A stretch of 64,000 bases of DNA from a phage: the sequence record PX969468.1. One strand, given 5' to 3'. A program made the translations under genes and the position numbers. The notes under the pieces were generated by a model. The model was given only the letters and a program-made list of their open reading frames with translations, had not been told where the DNA came from and made no database searches. Positions 4,465 to 13,978 of this stretch are shown here, piece after piece; within the stretch, counting starts at the first letter, position 1, and the number at the start of each line of letters is the position of its first letter.

Positions 4465-5748
4465 TTATTCCAGCACCTCCCAAGTGTCTGGGTTAACATT
4501 TCGGACGCAGATACCGACAGGGAATTGGTAGTTATTGTCTTCTGTCCTTGCTTGATATTTGAAGGTGACAAACTTGCCGATCATTTCCTGCATTCTGTCA
4601 TAGCTACGCTCCTCGTGCGTACCTTTCATCTTCATTTTAACAACAATACCTTCCTTGTCAACACAGATAAGAACACCTTCATCATTCTTATCTTTCTCAA
4701 CGTCAATAACTTTCACCTCTGCGTCGTTGAACTTTTTCCATTTCAATGCTTCAGATGTTCGCTGACCGTACTCGTATTTACCGCAGAAATTACGCATGAT
4801 AGTACCTTCATATCCTTCGGACATGAATATACCAACAGATTCTTCGCAATGATCAACTGTGTACGCAAGCTCTGCGTCAACAACCTTGATATGGTCAAGC
4901 ATCAGAGTGGTAACGGTATCCTCTGCATCCATAAGATCCTTGCAGCGTCCAGACTCTGTTTCTGGATCCCACCACACCTTGTCGCTAGGAATATCAAAAA
5001 TGTGATACTCCAGATCGTAGCTACAGTACCCACCGTAACGCAAATCATCACGAACAGGCTCAACATCGACAGGAATATCTACCTTGTTGAAGTTTTTGTA
5101 TGTTGATAAGCCTGCCTTAATTGCGGCATGACGGCGTTTTTTATCTGCCTCATAGTCTTTATCGATCTCGGCCTGAATCTCTTCCTGTGTGCGCCACCGT
5201 TTAGCAAGAGACACTATTTTCTGCAAAGGAAGACCATGAATGTATAGTTCCCCATCAAGTTGTTTAATCCCAGTGGTAGAATGGAAAGAACGAAGTTGCT
5301 CTAAAAGCTTTCCTTGAATAGGGTAGGACTTATTACCACGGGAAATAAATTTAGGCTCACCGTTTTGGAAAACAACTAGTAGACGAAGGCCATCTAACTT
5401 ACGCAAGATCCAGCAAGGTAATTTAAGTGCCTTTCCACGCTTCAGGTAGTCATGCACCAGCATGGGTAAAAGGTCAACACCCTGCTCGCAATCTTCCATA
5501 TTTTCAACATACCCCAGACGGACTTGTTTTTCCCACTTACTGATCGCTTCCAGCTCAGCCTGTTGCTCAGCTGTAGTTTCATTGGCACGACCCACGTTCT
5601 TAGGTGTGCAGATCGTCTCTTTGTATTGCAGTTTACCATCAAGCTTGCCAAACTCTACGATAACCTTATCACCATCCGTGAATACTTTCCACTGTTGGTA
5701 GCTGCCATCTTTATTCAGTGCGTACAGTGTTGTTTTGATTTGATGCAT
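4465..5748 (-). CDS. ATP-dependent DNA ligase
   Basis: 427 codons; adenylation motif K-L-D-G (KxDG) in RKLDGLRLLVV plus downstream ligase-like motifs. Confidence 0.65.
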   Translation of the reverse strand: MHQIKTTLYALNKDGSYQQWKVFTDGDKVIVEFGKLDGKLQYKETICTPKNVGRANETTAEQQAELEAISKWEKQVRLGYVENMEDCEQGVDLLPMLVHDYLKRGKALKLPCWILRKLDGLRLLVVFQNGEPKFISRGNKSYPIQGKLLEQLRSFHSTTGIKQLDGELYIHGLPLQKIVSLAKRWRTQEEIQAEIDKDYEADKKRRHAAIKAGLSTYKNFNKVDIPVDVEPVRDDLRYGGYCSYDLEYHIFDIPSDKVWWDPETESGRCKDLMDAEDTVTTLMLDHIKVVDAELAYTVDHCEESVGIFMSEGYEGTIMRNFCGKYEYGQRTSEALKWKKFNDAEVKVIDVEKDKNDEGVLICVDKEGIVVKMKMKGTHEERSYDRMQEMIGKFVTFKYQARTEDNNYQFPVGICVRNVNPDTWEVLE

Positions 5749-6017
5749 TACTCGGCCTCTTCCTTAAAAATTTTAAACATCTCTTCTTTACTCATTACCA
5801 ACCAGTCTCCCATAAAGTCAACTAACCAATCTCCCTGGTACAAGACTAGGTTACCAAACGGCTCTACAAGCTCACACATGCGACGAAGATCTCTGGTCCG
5901 AACAGGTGACGATGTAAACACACCTGTATCAATCCACCGTTGCAGATCAGATACTGATGAAGAGCTTCCGTCAAACTGGTGTGCTTCTACAGGTTTAGCA
6001 AGATTAAATAACGGCAT
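5748..6017 (-). CDS. hypothetical protein
   Basis: 89-codon ORF tightly packed between neighbours. Confidence 0.35.
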   Translation of the reverse strand: MPLFNLAKPVEAHQFDGSSSSVSDLQRWIDTGVFTSSPVRTRDLRRMCELVEPFGNLVLYQGDWLVDFMGDWLVMSKEEMFKIFKEEAE

Positions 6018-6312
6018 TACAGTCCTCCTTATCTAATAGGTCTTTTATCGGGTAAACAAGCAGGTGTGGATCGTAATAATTTATAGTTTTATTCTGCCAC
6101 ACTATGAACTTAATTACAACTAAATTTACCACATCTTTATCTCCATGTAGTCCAACACACAGATTTGTCCATATTTTGTGGTTGAATACTTTGCTGTCGA
6201 TGTAGATCTTAGTGTCAAACTTATCCTCTATCCTGCCTATGAGTTTAACCAACTCTTTCATCTGATCCCCAAACACAGCATCGTTTTCAAGATCTCTAGA
6301 GTGCTTGTACAT
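6004..6312 (-). CDS. hypothetical protein
   Basis: 102-codon ORF; AGGTAG-type RBS upstream of start on minus strand. Confidence 0.4.
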   Translation of the reverse strand: MYKHSRDLENDAVFGDQMKELVKLIGRIEDKFDTKIYIDSKVFNHKIWTNLCVGLHGDKDVVNLVVIKFIVWQNKTINYYDPHLLVYPIKDLLDKEDCNAVI

Positions 6313-6339: not shown

Positions 6340-6370
6340 CTAAACAAGTAAAGCCGGGATCGCCCCGGCT
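6340..6370 (-). terminator. rho-independent terminator-like hairpin after the MazG-like gene
   Basis: stem GCCGGG/CCCGGC with 5-nt loop followed on the minus strand by T-rich tract. Confidence 0.4.
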
Positions 6371-6376
6371 ATGTTA

Positions 6377-7090
6377 TTAAATATATTCTGTTACATCCTT
6401 GAAGCTTGAAGGCTTCATAATCTTACCTTTACTGTCGAGGAATATGATAACTTTATTTCCGTTGTAGAATTCTTCTTTAGCAACAAAACCTTCATAGCGA
6501 CCATCAAAGCGTCGCTCAAGATCTTTAATCTCCAACTCGATGAGTTGTTCAACAGGCATATCTGCACTGGCACCGTGTGAATACCGCAGATGGTTGACGC
6601 GTGCAAACTTGCTGTCATTAGATTTTAGAACCTTCCGCATCATCCCGCACACATCACCGCGAAGCTGGAACAGCAAAGCTGTTGACAACTCTGCTAAGCG
6701 GTAAGCAGACGCTCTTTGCTTAGAGGTATTTTTCGCAGCGATCAGTGTATCATAAAATTCACCGATCTTAAACTTAAGACCTCGCGGATTATCAAACAGG
6801 TTTGACCACTTTTCATGGTTATCGTTAACAAGATAAGCGGCATAACTTGTGACAACATGAAGATCGCAGGCCTCTTTTAGGAGATGATCCCCACCATCAC
6901 CTTTCTCCAACTCTTCCAAAACCTCATTGAACTCTTCCTCAATGAAACTCAGCTGAAGTTCGAATGGTGTGTATGATTTTTTCACTTTAGCTGCTACACG
7001 GTTCCAGTTTTCCACCCAGTTGGCAGACCAAAGGTAGTTTTCAGGCTGGGACAGTTTTTCCAGGTTGTCGATCAGTTTAGTATTCAGCAT
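6377..7090 (-). CDS. MazG-like nucleotide pyrophosphohydrolase domain protein (tentative)
   Basis: 237 codons; segment EEEFNEVLEELEKGDGGDHLLKEACDLHVV matches the E-x2-E...E-x-x-D acidic helix pattern of MazG-type enzymes. Confidence 0.4.
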   Translation of the reverse strand: MLNTKLIDNLEKLSQPENYLWSANWVENWNRVAAKVKKSYTPFELQLSFIEEEFNEVLEELEKGDGGDHLLKEACDLHVVTSYAAYLVNDNHEKWSNLFDNPRGLKFKIGEFYDTLIAAKNTSKQRASAYRLAELSTALLFQLRGDVCGMMRKVLKSNDSKFARVNHLRYSHGASADMPVEQLIELEIKDLERRFDGRYEGFVAKEEFYNGNKVIIFLDSKGKIMKPSSFKDVTEYI

Positions 7091-7104
7091 TAAAAGGCCT
7101 CCGC

Positions 7105-7866
7105 TTACAGTTCCATAAAGTTTTCTACGATGTCAATAAATGTTTTATCAGAGAAAGCGTCAACCGCCCCGTTAAACCAAACTGGGATGCCGCGATCCTC
7201 ATATTGATAAAGGTCGCTACGTGAAATGCCGCTTCCATCTGCACTCTGCGAATCATACTTGTTTACAATCAGTAGTTTTGTGCCTTTACAAGTAGCAGGA
7301 AACAATTCCCAGTTAAAATTAATAACTGTGTTAGAACAACCCACCAGAATCACCATATCATTGCTGGTAAGAGATGTCAATAGGTCATACATGTCTGTAT
7401 ACTTAGGAGCAACCTCACCGAAGAACACCACATTGGGCTTAACCCAAGTATACTTGCCTGTATCTACCTCCGTGTATCCGATATTTTTAATTACATCATT
7501 ACCTTCAGCATCTTCGTAGGTGATTTCAGGCAAATACCCGTGGACATGTAAGATATCTTCATGTTTAACACCAGCACGCTCCAGCAAATCATCTATATTG
7601 GTTGTCAGGTTGATCACACGACCAGACCAACGTGAATACCACTCAGCGATCCGGAGATGTGCAAGGTTAGGATCAACACTGCCCAGAGCTACACGCCGTG
7701 CATTGTAAAAGTCATGCACCTTATAGTAGTTCTTGGCAAAGGTGTGGATGTTACACACCTCATCGATGCTGAAATTCTCCCACATTGCAGTTTGACCAGA
7801 ACGAAAAGTTGGGATCCCAGATTCTGCGCTCAAGCCAGCACCAGAAATAACAATAAGTCGTCGCAT
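7105..7866 (-). CDS. Sir2-family (sirtuin-like) NAD-dependent enzyme
   Basis: 253 codons; GAGLSAESGIPTFR, TTNIDDL, HVHG and VKPNVVFFGE motifs in canonical order; no Cys4 zinc ribbon evident. Confidence 0.65.
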   Translation of the reverse strand: MRRLIVISGAGLSAESGIPTFRSGQTAMWENFSIDEVCNIHTFAKNYYKVHDFYNARRVALGSVDPNLAHLRIAEWYSRWSGRVINLTTNIDDLLERAGVKHEDILHVHGYLPEITYEDAEGNDVIKNIGYTEVDTGKYTWVKPNVVFFGEVAPKYTDMYDLLTSLTSNDMVILVGCSNTVINFNWELFPATCKGTKLLIVNKYDSQSADGSGISRSDLYQYEDRGIPVWFNGAVDAFSDKTFIDIVENFMEL

Positions 7867-7874
7867 AAATGTCC

Positions 7875-8225
7875 TTAGTAGATGTTTTGGTTGATCTCTA
7901 TTCCAAACTTCTTGAATGAGTCAGCAGCAAGCATAAATTTACGAGCCGCTGATGGGTTAGAAGTATGCACGAAAATCTTCACGTTGTCAACTACAGGAGG
8001 CTTACCAAATACAAATTTTTCCTCCAACATAGATAGGCAATCGTACCCTTCAAATACCTCTCCAAGATCGTTGTCCATGTGCCACTCAGAAACGCGCCTG
8101 TAGAGCTTTCCCTTATCGTTAATAAAATCCATAAACTCAGAGGAATTCTTTAGCCAAATAGCATCGGGGATCCCATAATTTGACGGATCTCTCAAGTCAT
8201 CCAGCCACACGATCAACTTCTTCAT
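7875..8225 (-). CDS. hypothetical protein, possible receiver-like (flavodoxin-fold) domain
   Basis: 116 codons; alternating hydrophobic strand/acidic loop pattern (LIVWLDD...SEWHMDND...KIFVHTSNP); assignment is pattern-based only. Confidence 0.3.
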   Translation of the reverse strand: MKKLIVWLDDLRDPSNYGIPDAIWLKNSSEFMDFINDKGKLYRRVSEWHMDNDLGEVFEGYDCLSMLEEKFVFGKPPVVDNVKIFVHTSNPSAARKFMLAADSFKKFGIEINQNIY

Positions 8226-9157
8226 TGCATATAGTCCTCGTTGTGGAAATAGCAGTCAAGTATCTCACGGCGTTCCTGCTCTAGGAGGCAGTTCCACACA
8301 TCTTCTGTGTAATTGTTACGAATGAAGTTTACCATGCCGTAAAACTCTTCGTCAATACGTTTAAAGATATCATCATCCCAAATCTTCCAAGCTTTACCCC
8401 TCATTACGGCCTTCCGTGCCAAATAGTATGGAGACTTGATCTTCAGCTGCAGATCATAAGGGTAGTAAGGCTTACGAATCATATACCCTTCACCTCTTGT
8501 TTCTGCAGCTAATTCTTTTGCATAGCTGAACGGAATTTCACGCACAGTGTGAGGACGTTTTGCACCAAGGTATTTGGCAATCCCATCTAAAGCTGCTTCT
8601 GGTAGCATTATTCCAGAATCATTATATCTGCAACCTATCAAATATGCGCCATGATCTTCCTGAACAATATGCGGATCTGAAGGGTGACAAATTTCAAACA
8701 TGAATGTCATGTTTTCATGGCCCATAACCTTCTTGATAAGATCTAAATTACCACATTGCTCCTGGATGGTTTCCTTTGCAAGGTTACAATATGGAGAATC
8801 AAGAGACCCGGTTGTTGAAAACAATAGTTCACCTTTATGAGATGATACCACACCAAGGAATCCGTTCTTTTTCTCTACCGCCGTCACAAGTTTATTGTCA
8901 GGCAGGTTGGTGGAGTTTTCTCCCAAATTAAACACTTTTGTGAAGGGCCATGCCACAACATTTCCTTCATTACCGACAACAATGCCTCGGCACTCTAGTA
9001 AACGCGGAGACAAATGCCATAAATTGTTGTAGAATACTTTTCTGGCATATTTGTAGATCTTTAATCCAAGATCTGGGTAATATCTGCTGGTTACAAGACC
9101 TTTGTCAACCAGGTCGTCTGCATTAAAATACTTCATCATACATTCCTCATTTGTCAT
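8222..9157 (-). CDS. RNA ligase-type covalent nucleotidyltransferase
   Basis: 311 codons; motif I K-x-N-G (EKKNGF), motif IV-like GEGYMIRKP, motif V-like LKIKSPYY; distinct from the DNA ligase at 4465..5748. Confidence 0.55.
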   Translation of the reverse strand: MTNEECMMKYFNADDLVDKGLVTSRYYPDLGLKIYKYARKVFYNNLWHLSPRLLECRGIVVGNEGNVVAWPFTKVFNLGENSTNLPDNKLVTAVEKKNGFLGVVSSHKGELLFSTTGSLDSPYCNLAKETIQEQCGNLDLIKKVMGHENMTFMFEICHPSDPHIVQEDHGAYLIGCRYNDSGIMLPEAALDGIAKYLGAKRPHTVREIPFSYAKELAAETRGEGYMIRKPYYPYDLQLKIKSPYYLARKAVMRGKAWKIWDDDIFKRIDEEFYGMVNFIRNNYTEDVWNCLLEQERREILDCYFHNEDYMQ

Positions 9158-9200
9158 TTTGTCCCTTTATTCTGCCACACAAATAACCTGGTGTCAACAC

Positions 9201-9229
9201 TTGAAATTAACAAAACAGTTAGGTATACT
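9201..9229 (+). promoter_or_regulatory. sigma70-like promoter (TTGAAA-17-TATACT) for the kinase operon
   Basis: hexamers and 17-nt spacer read directly in the divergent intergenic region. Confidence 0.45.
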
Positions 9230-9257
9230 CTCATTAAAATTAAAACGGAGAGTTACT

Positions 9258-9668
9258 ATGTCTAAAATGCTATATATCGTGCGTGGTCTACCAGGGTCTG
9301 GCAAATCAACACTGGCAAATGCGCTATCTTTAGAAGGTCTGTATCCACATTTTGAGAACGATATGTTCTGGTACGACGATGACGGCAATTACAATTGGGA
9401 TGCAAGTAAAGTAACACTTGCAGCAAAATGGTGCAAAGATAACGTAGAAGATATGATGCGTATGGGCTACGACCGTATCGTGGTAAGTAATACGTTTACA
9501 AAAGAAAAATATGTGCAAGAATATATTGACATGGCGATCAGTCATGGATATAGTTATACCGTGATCGTGGTTGAAAACCGCCATGGTAATAAAAGCATTC
9601 ATGATGTTCCAGACAGGGTTGTGGATCGTATGGAACGCCAGCTTAAAAACTGCATTAAACTTAAATGA
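9258..9668 (+). CDS. P-loop kinase, polynucleotide kinase-like
   Basis: 136 codons; Walker A GLPGSGKST near N-terminus; GGAG RBS 7 nt upstream; the track ORF starts upstream but the Met at 9258 has the RBS. Confidence 0.55.
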   Translation: MSKMLYIVRGLPGSGKSTLANALSLEGLYPHFENDMFWYDDDGNYNWDASKVTLAAKWCKDNVEDMMRMGYDRIVVSNTFTKEKYVQEYIDMAISHGYSYTVIVVENRHGNKSIHDVPDRVVDRMERQLKNCIKLK

Positions 9669-9675
9669 GGAATGT

Positions 9676-10230
9676 ATGAAATACTTTGTAACAAGCGACA
9701 CACACTTTCTCCACCAGCGGGTAATGGAGTTCGACTCATGTCAAAAACACAGATCTCAGTATGATCACAATCTTGACAGTATGAATGCGGGAATCATCAC
9801 CAAGTGGAACTCTGTTGTGTCACCTGCAGACACTGTGTTTCACTTGGGGGATATTGCGTGCACTAATGATAAGAATATCAACAAATTGCTTCCAGATGTT
9901 CTAAATATGTTGAACGGACATATTATTCTTGTTCGTGGTAACCATGACACAAGGACGACTGTCAGAATTATGAAAGAGTTCGGTCATGAGGTTGTAGATT
10001 ATTACGAGCTTCGCCACAACAAGAATTTGATCTGTATGAGCCATTACCAGTTTGCAAAGTGGAACAGAAAGCCTCACGGATCAGTCCAACTGTTCGGTCA
10101 TGCTCACGGAACCACACAGCAGTTGTTTGGCAGGCAGTTTGATGTCGGTTGGGATGTGTGGGGGAGACTCTTACCATTAGAAGAGGCATACCGTATTGCA
10201 ATGAGTCTTGCTATTGACAGCGGGGAGTAA
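9676..10230 (+). CDS. calcineurin-like metallophosphoesterase
   Basis: 184 codons; SDTHF, GDI, GNHD and GHAH motifs in canonical order. Confidence 0.6.
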   Translation: MKYFVTSDTHFLHQRVMEFDSCQKHRSQYDHNLDSMNAGIITKWNSVVSPADTVFHLGDIACTNDKNINKLLPDVLNMLNGHIILVRGNHDTRTTVRIMKEFGHEVVDYYELRHNKNLICMSHYQFAKWNRKPHGSVQLFGHAHGTTQQLFGRQFDVGWDVWGRLLPLEEAYRIAMSLAIDSGE

Positions 10231-13166: not shown

Positions 13167-13241
13167 GCCCTGTTAGCTTAGTGGATAAAGCAGCGGCCTT
13201 CTAAGCCGTTGACACTGGTTCGAGTCCAGTACGGGGTGCCA
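13167..13241 (+). tRNA. tRNA-Arg (anticodon TCT)
   Basis: hand-folded cloverleaf: acceptor GCCCTGT/ACGGGGT (two G-U), D-arm GCTT/AAGC, anticodon loop CTTCTAA, T-arm ACTGG-TTCGAGT-CCAGT, encoded CCA. Confidence 0.6.
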
Positions 13242-13245
13242 AATT

Positions 13246-13332
13246 GGGGAGTTATCCCGTAGAGGTAGCGGTGTAGACTGTAAATCTATTGTCATTGCGA
13301 CTCGGGTGGTTCGACTCCACCACTCCCCACCA
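13246..13332 (+). tRNA. tRNA-Tyr (anticodon GTA), long variable arm
   Basis: acceptor GGGGAGT/ACTCCCC, anticodon stem GTAGA/TCTAT with loop CTGTAAA, T-arm GGTGG-TTCGACT-CCACC, encoded CCA. Confidence 0.6.
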
Positions 13333-13446
13333 AATTTATATTTTTAAATGCATAAATCATACAGATAATGACATTGATATTTATCGTCGTTTATACTAGT
13401 CACTAACTGCTCGAAAATCAGTGTCATTATCAGTGTAATTTATAAA

Positions 13447-13537
13447 GGAGGGTAGGGAGCAATGGTGCTCAAGCGGTCTTGAAAACCGTCCCGTTGAGGA
13501 TGACTCGATGATGGTTCGATTCCATTACTCTCCGCCA
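13447..13537 (+). tRNA. tRNA-Ser (anticodon TGA), long variable arm
   Basis: acceptor GGAGGGT/ACTCTCC, anticodon stem-loop GCGGT-CTTGAAA-ACCGT, T-loop TTCGATT, encoded CCA. Confidence 0.55.
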
Positions 13538-13635
13538 CATTGTTGACCTTGTAATTAAGCGAAAGCCGGAAGCAGAACCGGATTATCAAATGTTACAGTC
13601 GTCATCGCCGACTAGCCACATGGTCAACATATTGC

Positions 13636-13735
13636 GCTAGGTAAGCCCTTTGGCAAGGGCGAGGATTTTTAATCCTGAAAATAGACGAGGTAGTCGTTGA
13701 ATACATAGGTGGTTCGATTCCATCACCTAGCACCT
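13636..13735 (+). pseudogene. atypical tRNA-like element (Lys-TTT-like 5' half, ~30-nt insert, no encoded CCA)
   Basis: perfect 7-bp acceptor GCTAGGT/ACCTAGC, D-arm GCCC/GGGC, anticodon-like loop TTTTTAA, T-arm GGTGG-TTCGATT-CCATC, but about 30 nt between anticodon arm and T-arm and CCT instead of CCA. Confidence 0.3.
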
Positions 13736-13738
13736 TTT

Positions 13739-13814
13739 GCTGATGTAGCACAATTGGCAGTGCAATTGATTTGTAATCAATAGGTTGCAGGTTCAAGTCC
13801 TGCCATCAGCACCA
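13739..13814 (+). tRNA. tRNA-Thr (anticodon TGT)
   Basis: perfect acceptor GCTGATG/CATCAGC, D-arm GCAC/GTGC, anticodon stem ATTGA/TCAAT loop TTTGTAA, T-arm GCAGG-TTCAAGT-CCTGC, encoded CCA. Confidence 0.7.
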
Positions 13815-13815
13815 T

Positions 13816-13890
13816 GGCCCTGTAGCTGGAAGGTTCAAGCAAGCGACTCATAATCGCCAGACGGTGGTTCAATTCCACCCAGGGCCACCA
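13816..13890 (+). tRNA. tRNA-Met or Ile2 (anticodon CAT)
   Basis: perfect acceptor GGCCCTG/CAGGGCC, anticodon loop CTCATAA, T-arm GGTGG-TTCAATT-CCACC, encoded CCA. Confidence 0.6.
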
Positions 13891-13901
13891 AATAATAAAT
13901 A

Positions 13902-13978
13902 CTCCGCGTAGCTCAGCTTGGTAGAGCGCCTGATTTGGGATCAGGAGGTCGAGTGTTCGAATCACTCCGTGGAGACCA
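13902..13978 (+). tRNA. tRNA-Pro (anticodon TGG)
   Basis: acceptor CTCCGCG/CGTGGAG, canonical D-arm GCTC-AGCTTGGTA-GAGC, anticodon stem CCTGA/TCAGG loop TTTGGGA, T-arm GAGTG-TTCGAAT-CACTC, encoded CCA. Confidence 0.7.

Follow-up and report, generated by a model that had tools for sequence, protein, structure and literature searches.

We analyzed a sirtuin (Sir2) gene and its neighbors in a stretch of phage DNA of 64,000 nucleotides (nt), sequence record PX969468.1, hereafter termed the window. The gene lies on the minus strand at 7105–7866, and we tentatively propose that its product is the nicotinamide adenine dinucleotide (NAD+)-using member of a phage module for the end healing and sealing of RNA, probably tRNA, a reading that we regard as a little short of probable. 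The gene context is RNA end healing and sealing, not general nucleotide metabolism, because an Rnl1-family RNA ligase gene heads the sirtuin unit, and the genes divergent from it encode a kinase of the polynucleotide-kinase type and a calcineurin-like phosphoesterase. The same neighborhood was described by Iyer, Burroughs, Anantharaman and Aravind in 2022 (Viruses 14:1977, PMC9503650, section 3.7.3); its prototypes are Escherichia phage V5 and Proteus phage Mydo. We adopted their model because the linkage recurs, the components map one-to-one onto Trl1 plus Tpt1, a close relative has no annotated gene for Tpt1, 2H, Macro or Nudix, and a tRNA cluster lies nearby. The feature is already known, as the genes are annotated and both the neighborhood and the hypothesis are published, whereas its biochemistry would be new.

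A first-pass annotation of the window, made from the sequence alone, had described a Sir2-like gene without a zinc ribbon between a receiver-like and a MazG-like partner, and had placed it among nucleotide-metabolism genes, with a possible action on host NAD+, protein acylation or NAD-based immunity and with nucleotide hydrolysis coupled through MazG. The Sir2 fold, the catalytic His, the NAD pocket, the missing zinc ribbon and the two partners held up, whereas the context and the implied novelty did not; the NAD-directed role found no specific support, and the MazG coupling looks weak. With respect to context, the operon opens with the RNA ligase gene and faces the kinase and phosphoesterase genes.

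Sequence and structure of the sirtuin

All of the sirtuin motifs quoted in that annotation (GAGLSAESGIPTFR, TTNIDDL, HVHG and VKPNVVFFGE) were found in the 253-amino-acid (aa) protein. It matched PF02146 with an E-value of 3.4e-28 (99.2 bits, cutoff 24) and phrog_2162 with 7e-108, and its best solved sequence relatives were E. coli CobB (2e-21) and SIRT5. An AlphaFold (AF2) model built from 29 homologs had a predicted local distance difference test (pLDDT) score of 89.7 and a predicted template modeling score (pTM) of 0.88. In a Foldseek search with this model, CobB was the top match (2e-18, template modeling (TM) score 0.73–0.83), followed by SIRT5 and archaeal Sir2 (Sir2Af). The Sir2 fold and the catalytic His, on which the first-pass annotation had staked its call, were thus both found, the fold by sequence, AF2 and Foldseek, and the His as an intact H109.

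Conservation was assessed across 29 homologs with 45–92% identity. The NAD-pocket residues (G9-A10-G11, F21, R22, N90, D92, S178 and N202) were invariant, as were S16 and G17, and the pattern GAG-x-S...GIP-x-FR was present. The catalytic H109, in H109-G110, and the FFGE loop were likewise invariant. The TQNID-type motif reads TTNIDD, with Thr replacing Gln and with N90 and D92 kept. Y54 and R57 were also invariant and aligned to the FYNARR segment of CobB; this Y-x-x-R pair is a class III feature that binds acidic acyl groups, such as the succinyl carboxylate, in SIRT5 and CobB.

The Cys4 zinc ribbon was indeed missing, with three Cys in the sirtuin and none between His109 and Lys143, a segment that is free of Cys in all 29 homologs as well. 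Despite the absent cysteines, the model has a three-strand beta module at the zinc-ribbon position (pLDDT ~94). Loss of the Cys4 set does not bar membership of the Sir2 superfamily, because some branches of the superfamily also lack the zinc ribbon. NCBIfam deacylase models matched the sirtuin with E-values of up to 5e-36 but below their cutoffs (best 123.9 bits versus 243), and searches of Pfam, NCBIfam and PDB for homology to the Tpt1 fold or family gave sirtuins only. Overall, the conservation points to an active, zinc-less enzyme that was presumably derived from the CobB/SIRT5-like class.

Compared with the class III sirtuins CobB (PDB 1s5p, 6rxj) and SIRT5, the phage protein has the fold, NAD pocket, catalytic His and FY-x-x-RR segment in common. 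It differs from them in that the phage clade is only 26–27% identical, has lost the four zinc Cys, carries TTN(I/V)DD in place of TQNID, and falls below the NCBIfam deacylase cutoffs.

Organization of the sirtuin unit

The three open reading frames (ORFs) of the first-pass annotation were found as described, on the minus strand at 6377–7090 (237 aa), 7105–7866 (253 aa) and 7875–8225 (116 aa). Together with the RNA ligase gene before them and the divergent pair, the locus has the following features.

9169–9197, minus strand: putative sigma-70-like promoter match before the RNA ligase gene (TTGACA-17 nt-CAGAAT with upstream TG; 10/12 in a consensus scan)
8222–9157, minus strand: Rnl1-family ATP-dependent RNA ligase, the first gene of the unit (PF09511 8.3e-15, phrog_562 1.8e-66)
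7875–8225, minus strand: cyclic-phosphate processing receiver-like (cREC) protein, 116 aa (PF20274 2.2e-14, phrog_1479 5e-35)
7105–7866, minus strand: zinc-less class-III-like sirtuin (Sir2), 253 aa (PF02146 3.4e-28, phrog_2162 7e-108)
6377–7090, minus strand: all-alpha nucleoside triphosphate (NTP) pyrophosphohydrolase of the MazG/dimeric-dUTPase superfamily, 237 aa (phrog_671 5.5e-22)
6352–6370, minus strand: intrinsic-terminator-like hairpin, AGCCGGG-loop-CCCGGCT with a T-rich tail (terminator scan)
9201–9229, plus strand: putative divergent sigma-70-like promoter match before the kinase gene (TTGAAA-17 nt-TATACT; 10/12 in a consensus scan)
9252–9668, plus strand: divergent P-loop kinase of the AAA_33/polynucleotide-kinase type (PF13671 AAA_33 2.9e-10)
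9676–10230, plus strand: divergent calcineurin-like metallophosphoesterase (PF12850 1.7e-6, PF00149 4.1e-6; PDB 1xm7 7e-11)

The genes of the minus-strand unit are tightly packed. The ligase and cREC genes share a 4-nt overlap, in which the cREC start lies over the ligase stop codon; the Sir2 start is 8 nt past the cREC stop and preceded by AAGGA, and the MazG-like start is 14 nt past the Sir2 stop and preceded by GGAGG. A 95-bp gap separates the unit from the divergent kinase and phosphoesterase pair. The terminator-like hairpin begins 6 nt past the MazG-like stop codon (predicted RNA fold −14.3 kcal/mol, z −2.4), and in an alignment with JES2013 and a second related locus (L002) its stem was invariant and its loop variable. 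An exact-pattern search for the hairpin in the fetched loci gave no match, because the loop length varies among genomes. Given that the genes overlap or are ≤14 nt apart, and that the unit is bounded by a promoter-like site on one side and by a terminator hairpin whose stem is conserved on the other, co-transcription of ligase, cREC, Sir2 and MazG as a four-gene unit is plausible; the promoter signals are matches to the sigma-70 consensus only.

The mechanically called start of the RNA ligase (ATG 9157) lies only ~5 nt past the transcription start expected from the promoter-like site. Inside the ORF, a pair of ATG codons at ~9139/9136 follows GAGGA and agrees with the shorter coding sequence in JES2013, and for these two reasons translation probably starts there.

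The 5.9 kb around the sirtuin locus showed 95–97% identity to more than 100 deposited genomes of rV5/FV3/JES2013-type phages (Vequintavirus), and judging from this similarity the phage is an rV5/FV3-like E. coli phage of the genus Vequintavirus. In the records of these >100 relatives, the middle gene is already labeled "Sir2-like protein" or "NAD-dependent deacetylase", and the neighborhood appears in PMC9503650; the novelty implied earlier therefore does not stand. In a RefSeq relative, one strand encodes a DNA ligase, two hypothetical proteins, a nucleotide pyrophosphohydrolase, Sir2, a hypothetical protein and an RNA ligase, and the opposite strand encodes an ATPase and a phosphoesterase. 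Eighteen records (MG065635–MG065677) titled "Campylobacter phage", 16 of them with C. jejuni as host, are ~95% identical to this Vequintavirus; the listed records carry no annotation and their host labels look doubtful.

Related loci in other phages

A scan of viral contigs found 64 loci that encode this sirtuin clade. Thirteen of them, from phages of ~140–150 kb, correspond to the type 2 neighborhood of PMC9503650 and combine the sirtuin with the RNA ligase, kinase, phosphoesterase, DNA ligase and MazG-like genes; cREC was present in 8 of the 13. All six components of the type 2 description (sirtuin, T4-like RNA ligase, cREC, nucleotide kinase, MazG-superfamily pyrophosphatase and calcineurin-like phosphoesterase) also occur in our window within 6377–10230, and the locus is a type 2 member because nothing substantive differs. 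The details added here to that description are the placement of ligase, cREC, Sir2 and MazG between a promoter-like site and a conserved hairpin, and the divergent orientation of the kinase and phosphoesterase genes.

In the type 2 set all genes are on one strand, in the order phosphoesterase, ligase, cREC, kinase, Sir2, DNA ligase, orf89 and MazG; the order in our locus is thus different from that in the Mydovirus-like phages, and the adjacency of Sir2 and MazG is not conserved in relatives. In Mydovirus-like loci the MazG-like gene is ~2 kb from Sir2, past the DNA ligase gene, and in each of the 13 type 2 loci it is no more than a few kb away from the module. The gene most constantly linked to the sirtuin is that for DNA ligase, in 15 Vequintavirinae- and Mydovirus-like loci. 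In seven Mydovirus-like loci (L023–L027, L031 and L059, at ~7750–7775) the DNA ligase and sirtuin ORFs overlap where the latter ends.

A third type in PMC9503650, typified by phage SP15, pairs the sirtuin with a Swiss-army-knife HAD phosphatase. We found 28 T5-like loci, including that of phage T5, in which a sirtuin ortholog with 55–56% identity lies directly upstream of a HAD_SAK_2 phosphatase ("Swiss Army Knife RNA repair", PF18143, 4e-20). The analysis thus reproduced types 2 and 3 independently, and the linkage of the sirtuin to RNA repair recurs in at least two unrelated genome backbones. The T5 sirtuin has the same invariant residues and likewise adjoins an RNA end-processing phosphatase, but no ligase, cREC, kinase or MazG-like relative was detected at the T5 locus, where the neighbors are nrdD and two DUF7415 proteins; nor was a MazG-like relative detected near Sir2 across the T5-like loci. 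In phage T5 (8651–9481 of its locus, L003) the two DUF7415 proteins are tandem (3e-33 and 3e-30) and follow the HAD_SAK_2 phosphatase, and they may be part of the sirtuin module.

Partner proteins

The 116-codon protein had been likened to a receiver fold, and it matched PF20274 cREC_REC (2.2e-14, 54.3 bits, cutoff 27) over residues 5–98 of 116. Its invariant residues were D9, D10, H49, D51, N52, D53, H87, S89, N90, P91 and K96, and the acidic residues expected at receiver-like positions (two aspartates) were conserved, with D9, D10, D51 and D53 as candidate equivalents of CheY D13 and D57. Proteins of the cREC family occur beside genes for RNA repair or NAD processing and are not known to accompany a histidine kinase, and this one is flanked by the RNA ligase and the sirtuin both here and in eight related loci. 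PDB searches with the single sequence and with a profile gave chance matches only. The group that defined cREC called it experimentally uncharacterized (PMC9503650, PMC7824862).

The earlier suggestion of a Glu at the phospho-acceptor position was not sustained, as Glu47 is deleted in one homolog and the CheY alignment that puts E47 on D57 was insignificant. In that hhalign comparison, the probability was 0.3% over 9 columns and only the strings VSEW and ISDW matched, and it was rejected. One cREC homolog (L042, 1287–1973) appears ~95 aa longer at the N-terminus than the others and has no equivalent of Glu47.

The nucleotidyltransferase motifs of the RNA ligase (K-x-N-G, EGYVIR and LLKIK) were invariant in six homologs. 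The protein scored well under the cutoff of the T4 RnlA equivalog model (39 versus 242 bits), and PDB searches with the single sequence and a six-member profile found no relative and did not separate affinity to T4 Rnl1 from affinity to Trl1. The PDB result for the kinase was uninformative. In 12 related loci the kinase and phosphoesterase genes accompany the sirtuin.

The MazG-like call for the 237-codon protein was supported by phrog_671 "nucleotide pyrophosphohydrolase" (5.5e-22), by family-level matches to PF01503 and PF03819, and by invariant acidic residues. The protein alone matched PF01503 (PRA-PH) with an E-value of 0.083, under the cutoff, and had no solved relative by sequence; the family profile searched against PDB gave only HisE (0.049) and MazG (0.87), both insignificant and both aligned on the EE-x-x-E...D motif. 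The family is small, with 164 representatives in an exhaustive search of 1.84 billion proteins. PF01503 was matched by 30 of 44 sampled members (best 3.9e-7) and PF03819 by 10 of 44, and at identities of 21–35% these 44 members shared E53, E56, D76, N158, K161, K223 and K226 as invariant residues, with E52 nearly so. Both the acidic metal-binding motif (EE-x-x-E...E/D-x-x-D) and the four-helix core fold were present. The model of the protein had a pLDDT of 76, and Foldseek found nothing significant with it. Because phrog_671, the family profile, the Pfam matches of members and the invariant residues agree, the protein is assigned to the all-alpha NTP-pyrophosphatase superfamily, where it is structurally nearest to the dimeric dUTPases and has an extra C-terminal hairpin. 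This GK-x-x-KP hairpin (K223, K226 and P227; residues 215–237, window 6377–6445) was invariant down to 21% identity, lies outside the canonical four-helix core, and may bind substrate. The similarity to dimeric dUTPases (staphylococcal phage Dut, 5myd; C. jejuni, 1w2y) and to MazG/HisE is marginal at the sequence level, and the C-terminal beta hairpin is an addition relative to them.

A proposed RNA repair pathway

What the analysis shows is the identity of the domains, the intact active sites, the anatomy of the operon and the recurring genomic linkage; each activity and substrate in the following scheme, which follows PMC9503650, is predicted. Host metal-independent RNases would cleave tRNA or mRNA to leave 2',3'-cyclic phosphate and 5'-OH ends. 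The kinase would phosphorylate the 5' end, cREC and/or the metallophosphoesterase would open or remove the cyclic phosphate, and the RNA ligase would close the break. The sirtuin would then move the ADP-ribose of NAD+ onto the leftover 2'-phosphate and so bring about its removal in the manner of Tpt1/KptA, which performs 2'-phosphate removal in fungal and plant tRNA splicing. Finally, cREC and a pyrophosphatase could break down the sirtuin product; the pyrophosphatase would here be the MazG-like protein, and in the jumbo-phage version of the system it is a Nudix enzyme (PMC9503650). The published proposal likewise has the sirtuin strip 2'-phosphates from RNA like KptA/Tpt1, and assigns to the phosphoesterases the opening of the cyclic phosphate or the processing of an ADP-ribose cyclic phosphate product (PMC9503650).

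The annotation of the replication half of a close relative's genome lists no gene for Tpt1/KptA, 2H, Macro or Nudix, and thus no other enzyme for the 2'-phosphate step. ARAGORN made seven tRNA calls at 13167–13978 on the plus strand, 3 kb from the module (Arg-tct, Tyr-gta, Ser-tga, an odd call of 99 nt, Thr-tgt, Met-cat and Pro-tgg), and this cluster is a possible source of substrates. The odd call (13636–13734) has a 4-base anticodon (atcc), yet it scored 35.5 bits with the Rfam tRNA model. The Ser call was not above the Rfam gathering score, and the RefSeq record of JES2013 annotates only four tRNAs in the region.

The one-to-one map is to Tpt1/KptA combined with Trl1 of fungi and plants (ligase, kinase and cyclic phosphodiesterase), and pairs an NAD+ enzyme, an Rnl1-family ligase, a polynucleotide-kinase-type kinase and a cyclic-phosphate processor. 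The sirtuin fold is, however, unrelated to that of Tpt1/KptA (Rossmann versus ADP-ribosyltransferase-like), and the sirtuin is not a member of that family but a proposed functional analog only. The Pnkp-Rnl1 repair of phage T4 against the PrrC anticodon nuclease is likewise a phage heal-and-seal system in which an Rnl1-family ligase works with a kinase and a phosphoesterase; in our window, phage tRNA genes are found close to the module. Unlike in T4, where kinase and phosphatase form a HAD fusion, they belong here to separate families (AAA_33 and calcineurin-like); the ligase is distant from RnlA, and the T4 pathway has no sirtuin, cREC or MazG partner.

If the published prediction is true, it would add a reaction class new to sirtuins, in which ADP-ribose is accepted by a nucleic-acid phosphate. 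Common coliphages of the rV5-like, T5-like and Mydovirus-like kinds would then carry an NAD+-dependent RNA repair convergent with eukaryotic tRNA splicing, a route that presumably counters host anticodon nucleases, and cREC could be put to a direct test in a tractable coliphage. The value of the locus is that of a tractable system for an unusual enzymatic prediction; otherwise it adds little to the published picture. Our literature search found no experimental work on phage sirtuins or on the Sir2 genes of rV5 or T5.

Evidence against the proposal and alternative explanations

Several points weigh against an RNA-repair function. We know of no sirtuin shown to use a phosphate nucleophile, and the proposal draws on gene context only. 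By sequence and structure the sirtuin is closest to the true lysine deacylases CobB and SIRT5, and it keeps the Y-x-x-R pair and the FGE substrate loop. To our knowledge, T4-type Rnl1 repair requires no 2'-phosphate removal; the metallophosphoesterase here could heal the ends completely, and the PDB searches leave the ligase unplaced with respect to the Trl1 type, which requires a 2'-phosphate. The link to MazG is loose, and the MazG-like protein is most similar to dUTPases. With the queries used, 23 of the 64 sirtuin loci had neither partner set. Two such neighborhoods were sampled: L032 (a ~150-kb phage) had DUF or unassigned neighbors only, and L064 (a 518-kb jumbo phage) had an AAA_33 kinase 1.9 kb off together with RNaseH-like, methyltransferase and amidoligase genes; the linkage to RNA repair is for this reason frequent and not universal. 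Many loci are also close relatives, and the locus counts therefore overstate the number of independent cases. In its most specific form, in which the sirtuin is a true RNA 2'-phosphotransferase and the first Sir2-fold enzyme with a nucleic-acid phosphate acceptor, within a phage-built, non-homologous replica of Trl1-Tpt1 composed of cREC as the cyclic phosphodiesterase, an AAA_33 kinase and an Rnl1-family ligase, we consider the proposal somewhat unlikely; the class III Tyr/Arg anion pocket might in that case have been re-used for phosphate binding.

The first-pass annotation had offered an action on protein acylation or on host NAD+ and NAD-based immunity, and of these deacylation is the part that stays live, through the kinship with CobB and SIRT5 and the invariant Y-x-x-R pair, while the immunity part found no likeness to defense NADases. 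The sirtuin could be a CobB-type NAD+-dependent lysine deacylase, possibly preferring acidic acyl groups such as succinyl, that acts on host or phage proteins in early infection. Its candidate targets would be adenylate-forming enzymes or the ligases encoded next to it, in which the catalytic lysines have to stay free, and its place among RNA and DNA ligase genes would then reflect regulation and not RNA chemistry. CobB and SIRT5 as top sequence and structure matches (2e-21; Foldseek 2e-18, TM ~0.8 for CobB), the NCBIfam deacylase matches to 5e-36, though below cutoffs, the invariant Y54-x-x-R57 on the CobB FYNARR segment, and the intact catalytic His and FGE loop all agree with this. So does the position of the DNA ligase gene, the most constant neighbor, whose ORF overlaps the end of Sir2 in Mydovirus-like loci. 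However, the Cys4 zinc module that canonical deacylases need structurally is lost across the clade, identity to CobB is only 26–27%, E. coli already has CobB, and a general deacylase would not explain why RNA end-healing phosphoesterases recur beside the sirtuin in unrelated backbones. We judge a deacylase function, the main alternative, to be somewhat unlikely on this evidence.

Acting as an NADase, or by using up or changing signals derived from ADP-ribose, the sirtuin might instead manipulate the host NAD+ pool or interfere with NAD-based immunity. Such a role would also use the intact NAD-binding and nicotinamide-cleaving residues, and cREC and pyrophosphatases are predicted to handle soluble ADP-ribose derivatives as well (PMC9503650, PMC7824862). 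The defense Sir2 NADases (ThsA, DSR1/2, SIR2-HerA and pAgo-associated SIR2) are members of the Sir2 superfamily that cleave NAD+, but the phage sirtuin has no sensor or partner domains and its structural neighbors are deacylases, not ThsA- or DSR-type NADases. Its match to the defense family PF13289 SIR2_2 (E 0.016, 15.7 bits) was below the threshold (cutoff 24.5), and a PADLOC scan of the four proteins gave nothing meaningful, the sole hit having an E-value of 0.0074 over 33 residues; a defense-type or defense-mimic reading was therefore dropped. Since NAD+ depletion would hurt the phage that carries the enzyme, and no NAD-salvage genes are annotated in the close relative, we give this kind of role little credence. 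Even less credence goes to an ADP-ribosyltransferase role in which a stable ADP-ribose mark would stay on an RNA end or protein, SirTM-like or similar to 5'-phosphate capping by Tpt1, with no completed removal of the 2'-phosphate. An intact active site within an RNA-end context would suit such an enzyme, and PMC12678800 and PMC10415124 describe ADP-ribosylation of 5'-phosphate ends by the Tpt1 family, but no Macro or other eraser gene lies nearby, unlike in the sirtuin-Macro pairs of PMC9503650, and there is no direct evidence for the activity. For the MazG-like protein a separate question arises, as the first-pass annotation had coupled its nucleotide hydrolysis to the sirtuin. This coupling is weakened by the loss of adjacency in Mydovirus-like loci and by the failure to detect a MazG-like gene near T5-like sirtuins. 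The protein could instead be a phage dUTPase or deoxynucleoside triphosphate sanitizer that merely shares a transcript with the sirtuin in Vequintavirus, in keeping with its position ~2 kb from Sir2, past DNA ligase, in Mydovirus-like loci and with the absence of any other annotated dUTPase in a relative whose genome encodes ThyX and RNR. Its constant proximity to the module in the 13 type 2 loci argues the other way, as does its potential to stand in for the Nudix enzyme of the jumbo-phage system (PMC9503650); for an uncoupled MazG-like protein we consider the balance to be even.

Neighboring genes

Downstream of the terminator-like hairpin, the window encodes the following features.

6004–6312 and 5748–6017, minus strand: two small proteins with no Pfam match, between the terminator and the DNA ligase gene (phrog_7684, phrog_14585)
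4465–5748, minus strand: ATP-dependent DNA ligase, within the transcription unit that follows downstream (PF01068, PF14743, phrog_114 2.9e-83)

Relatives of the phrog_7684 and phrog_14585 proteins accompany the module in 10–11 of 13 related loci despite the altered gene order.

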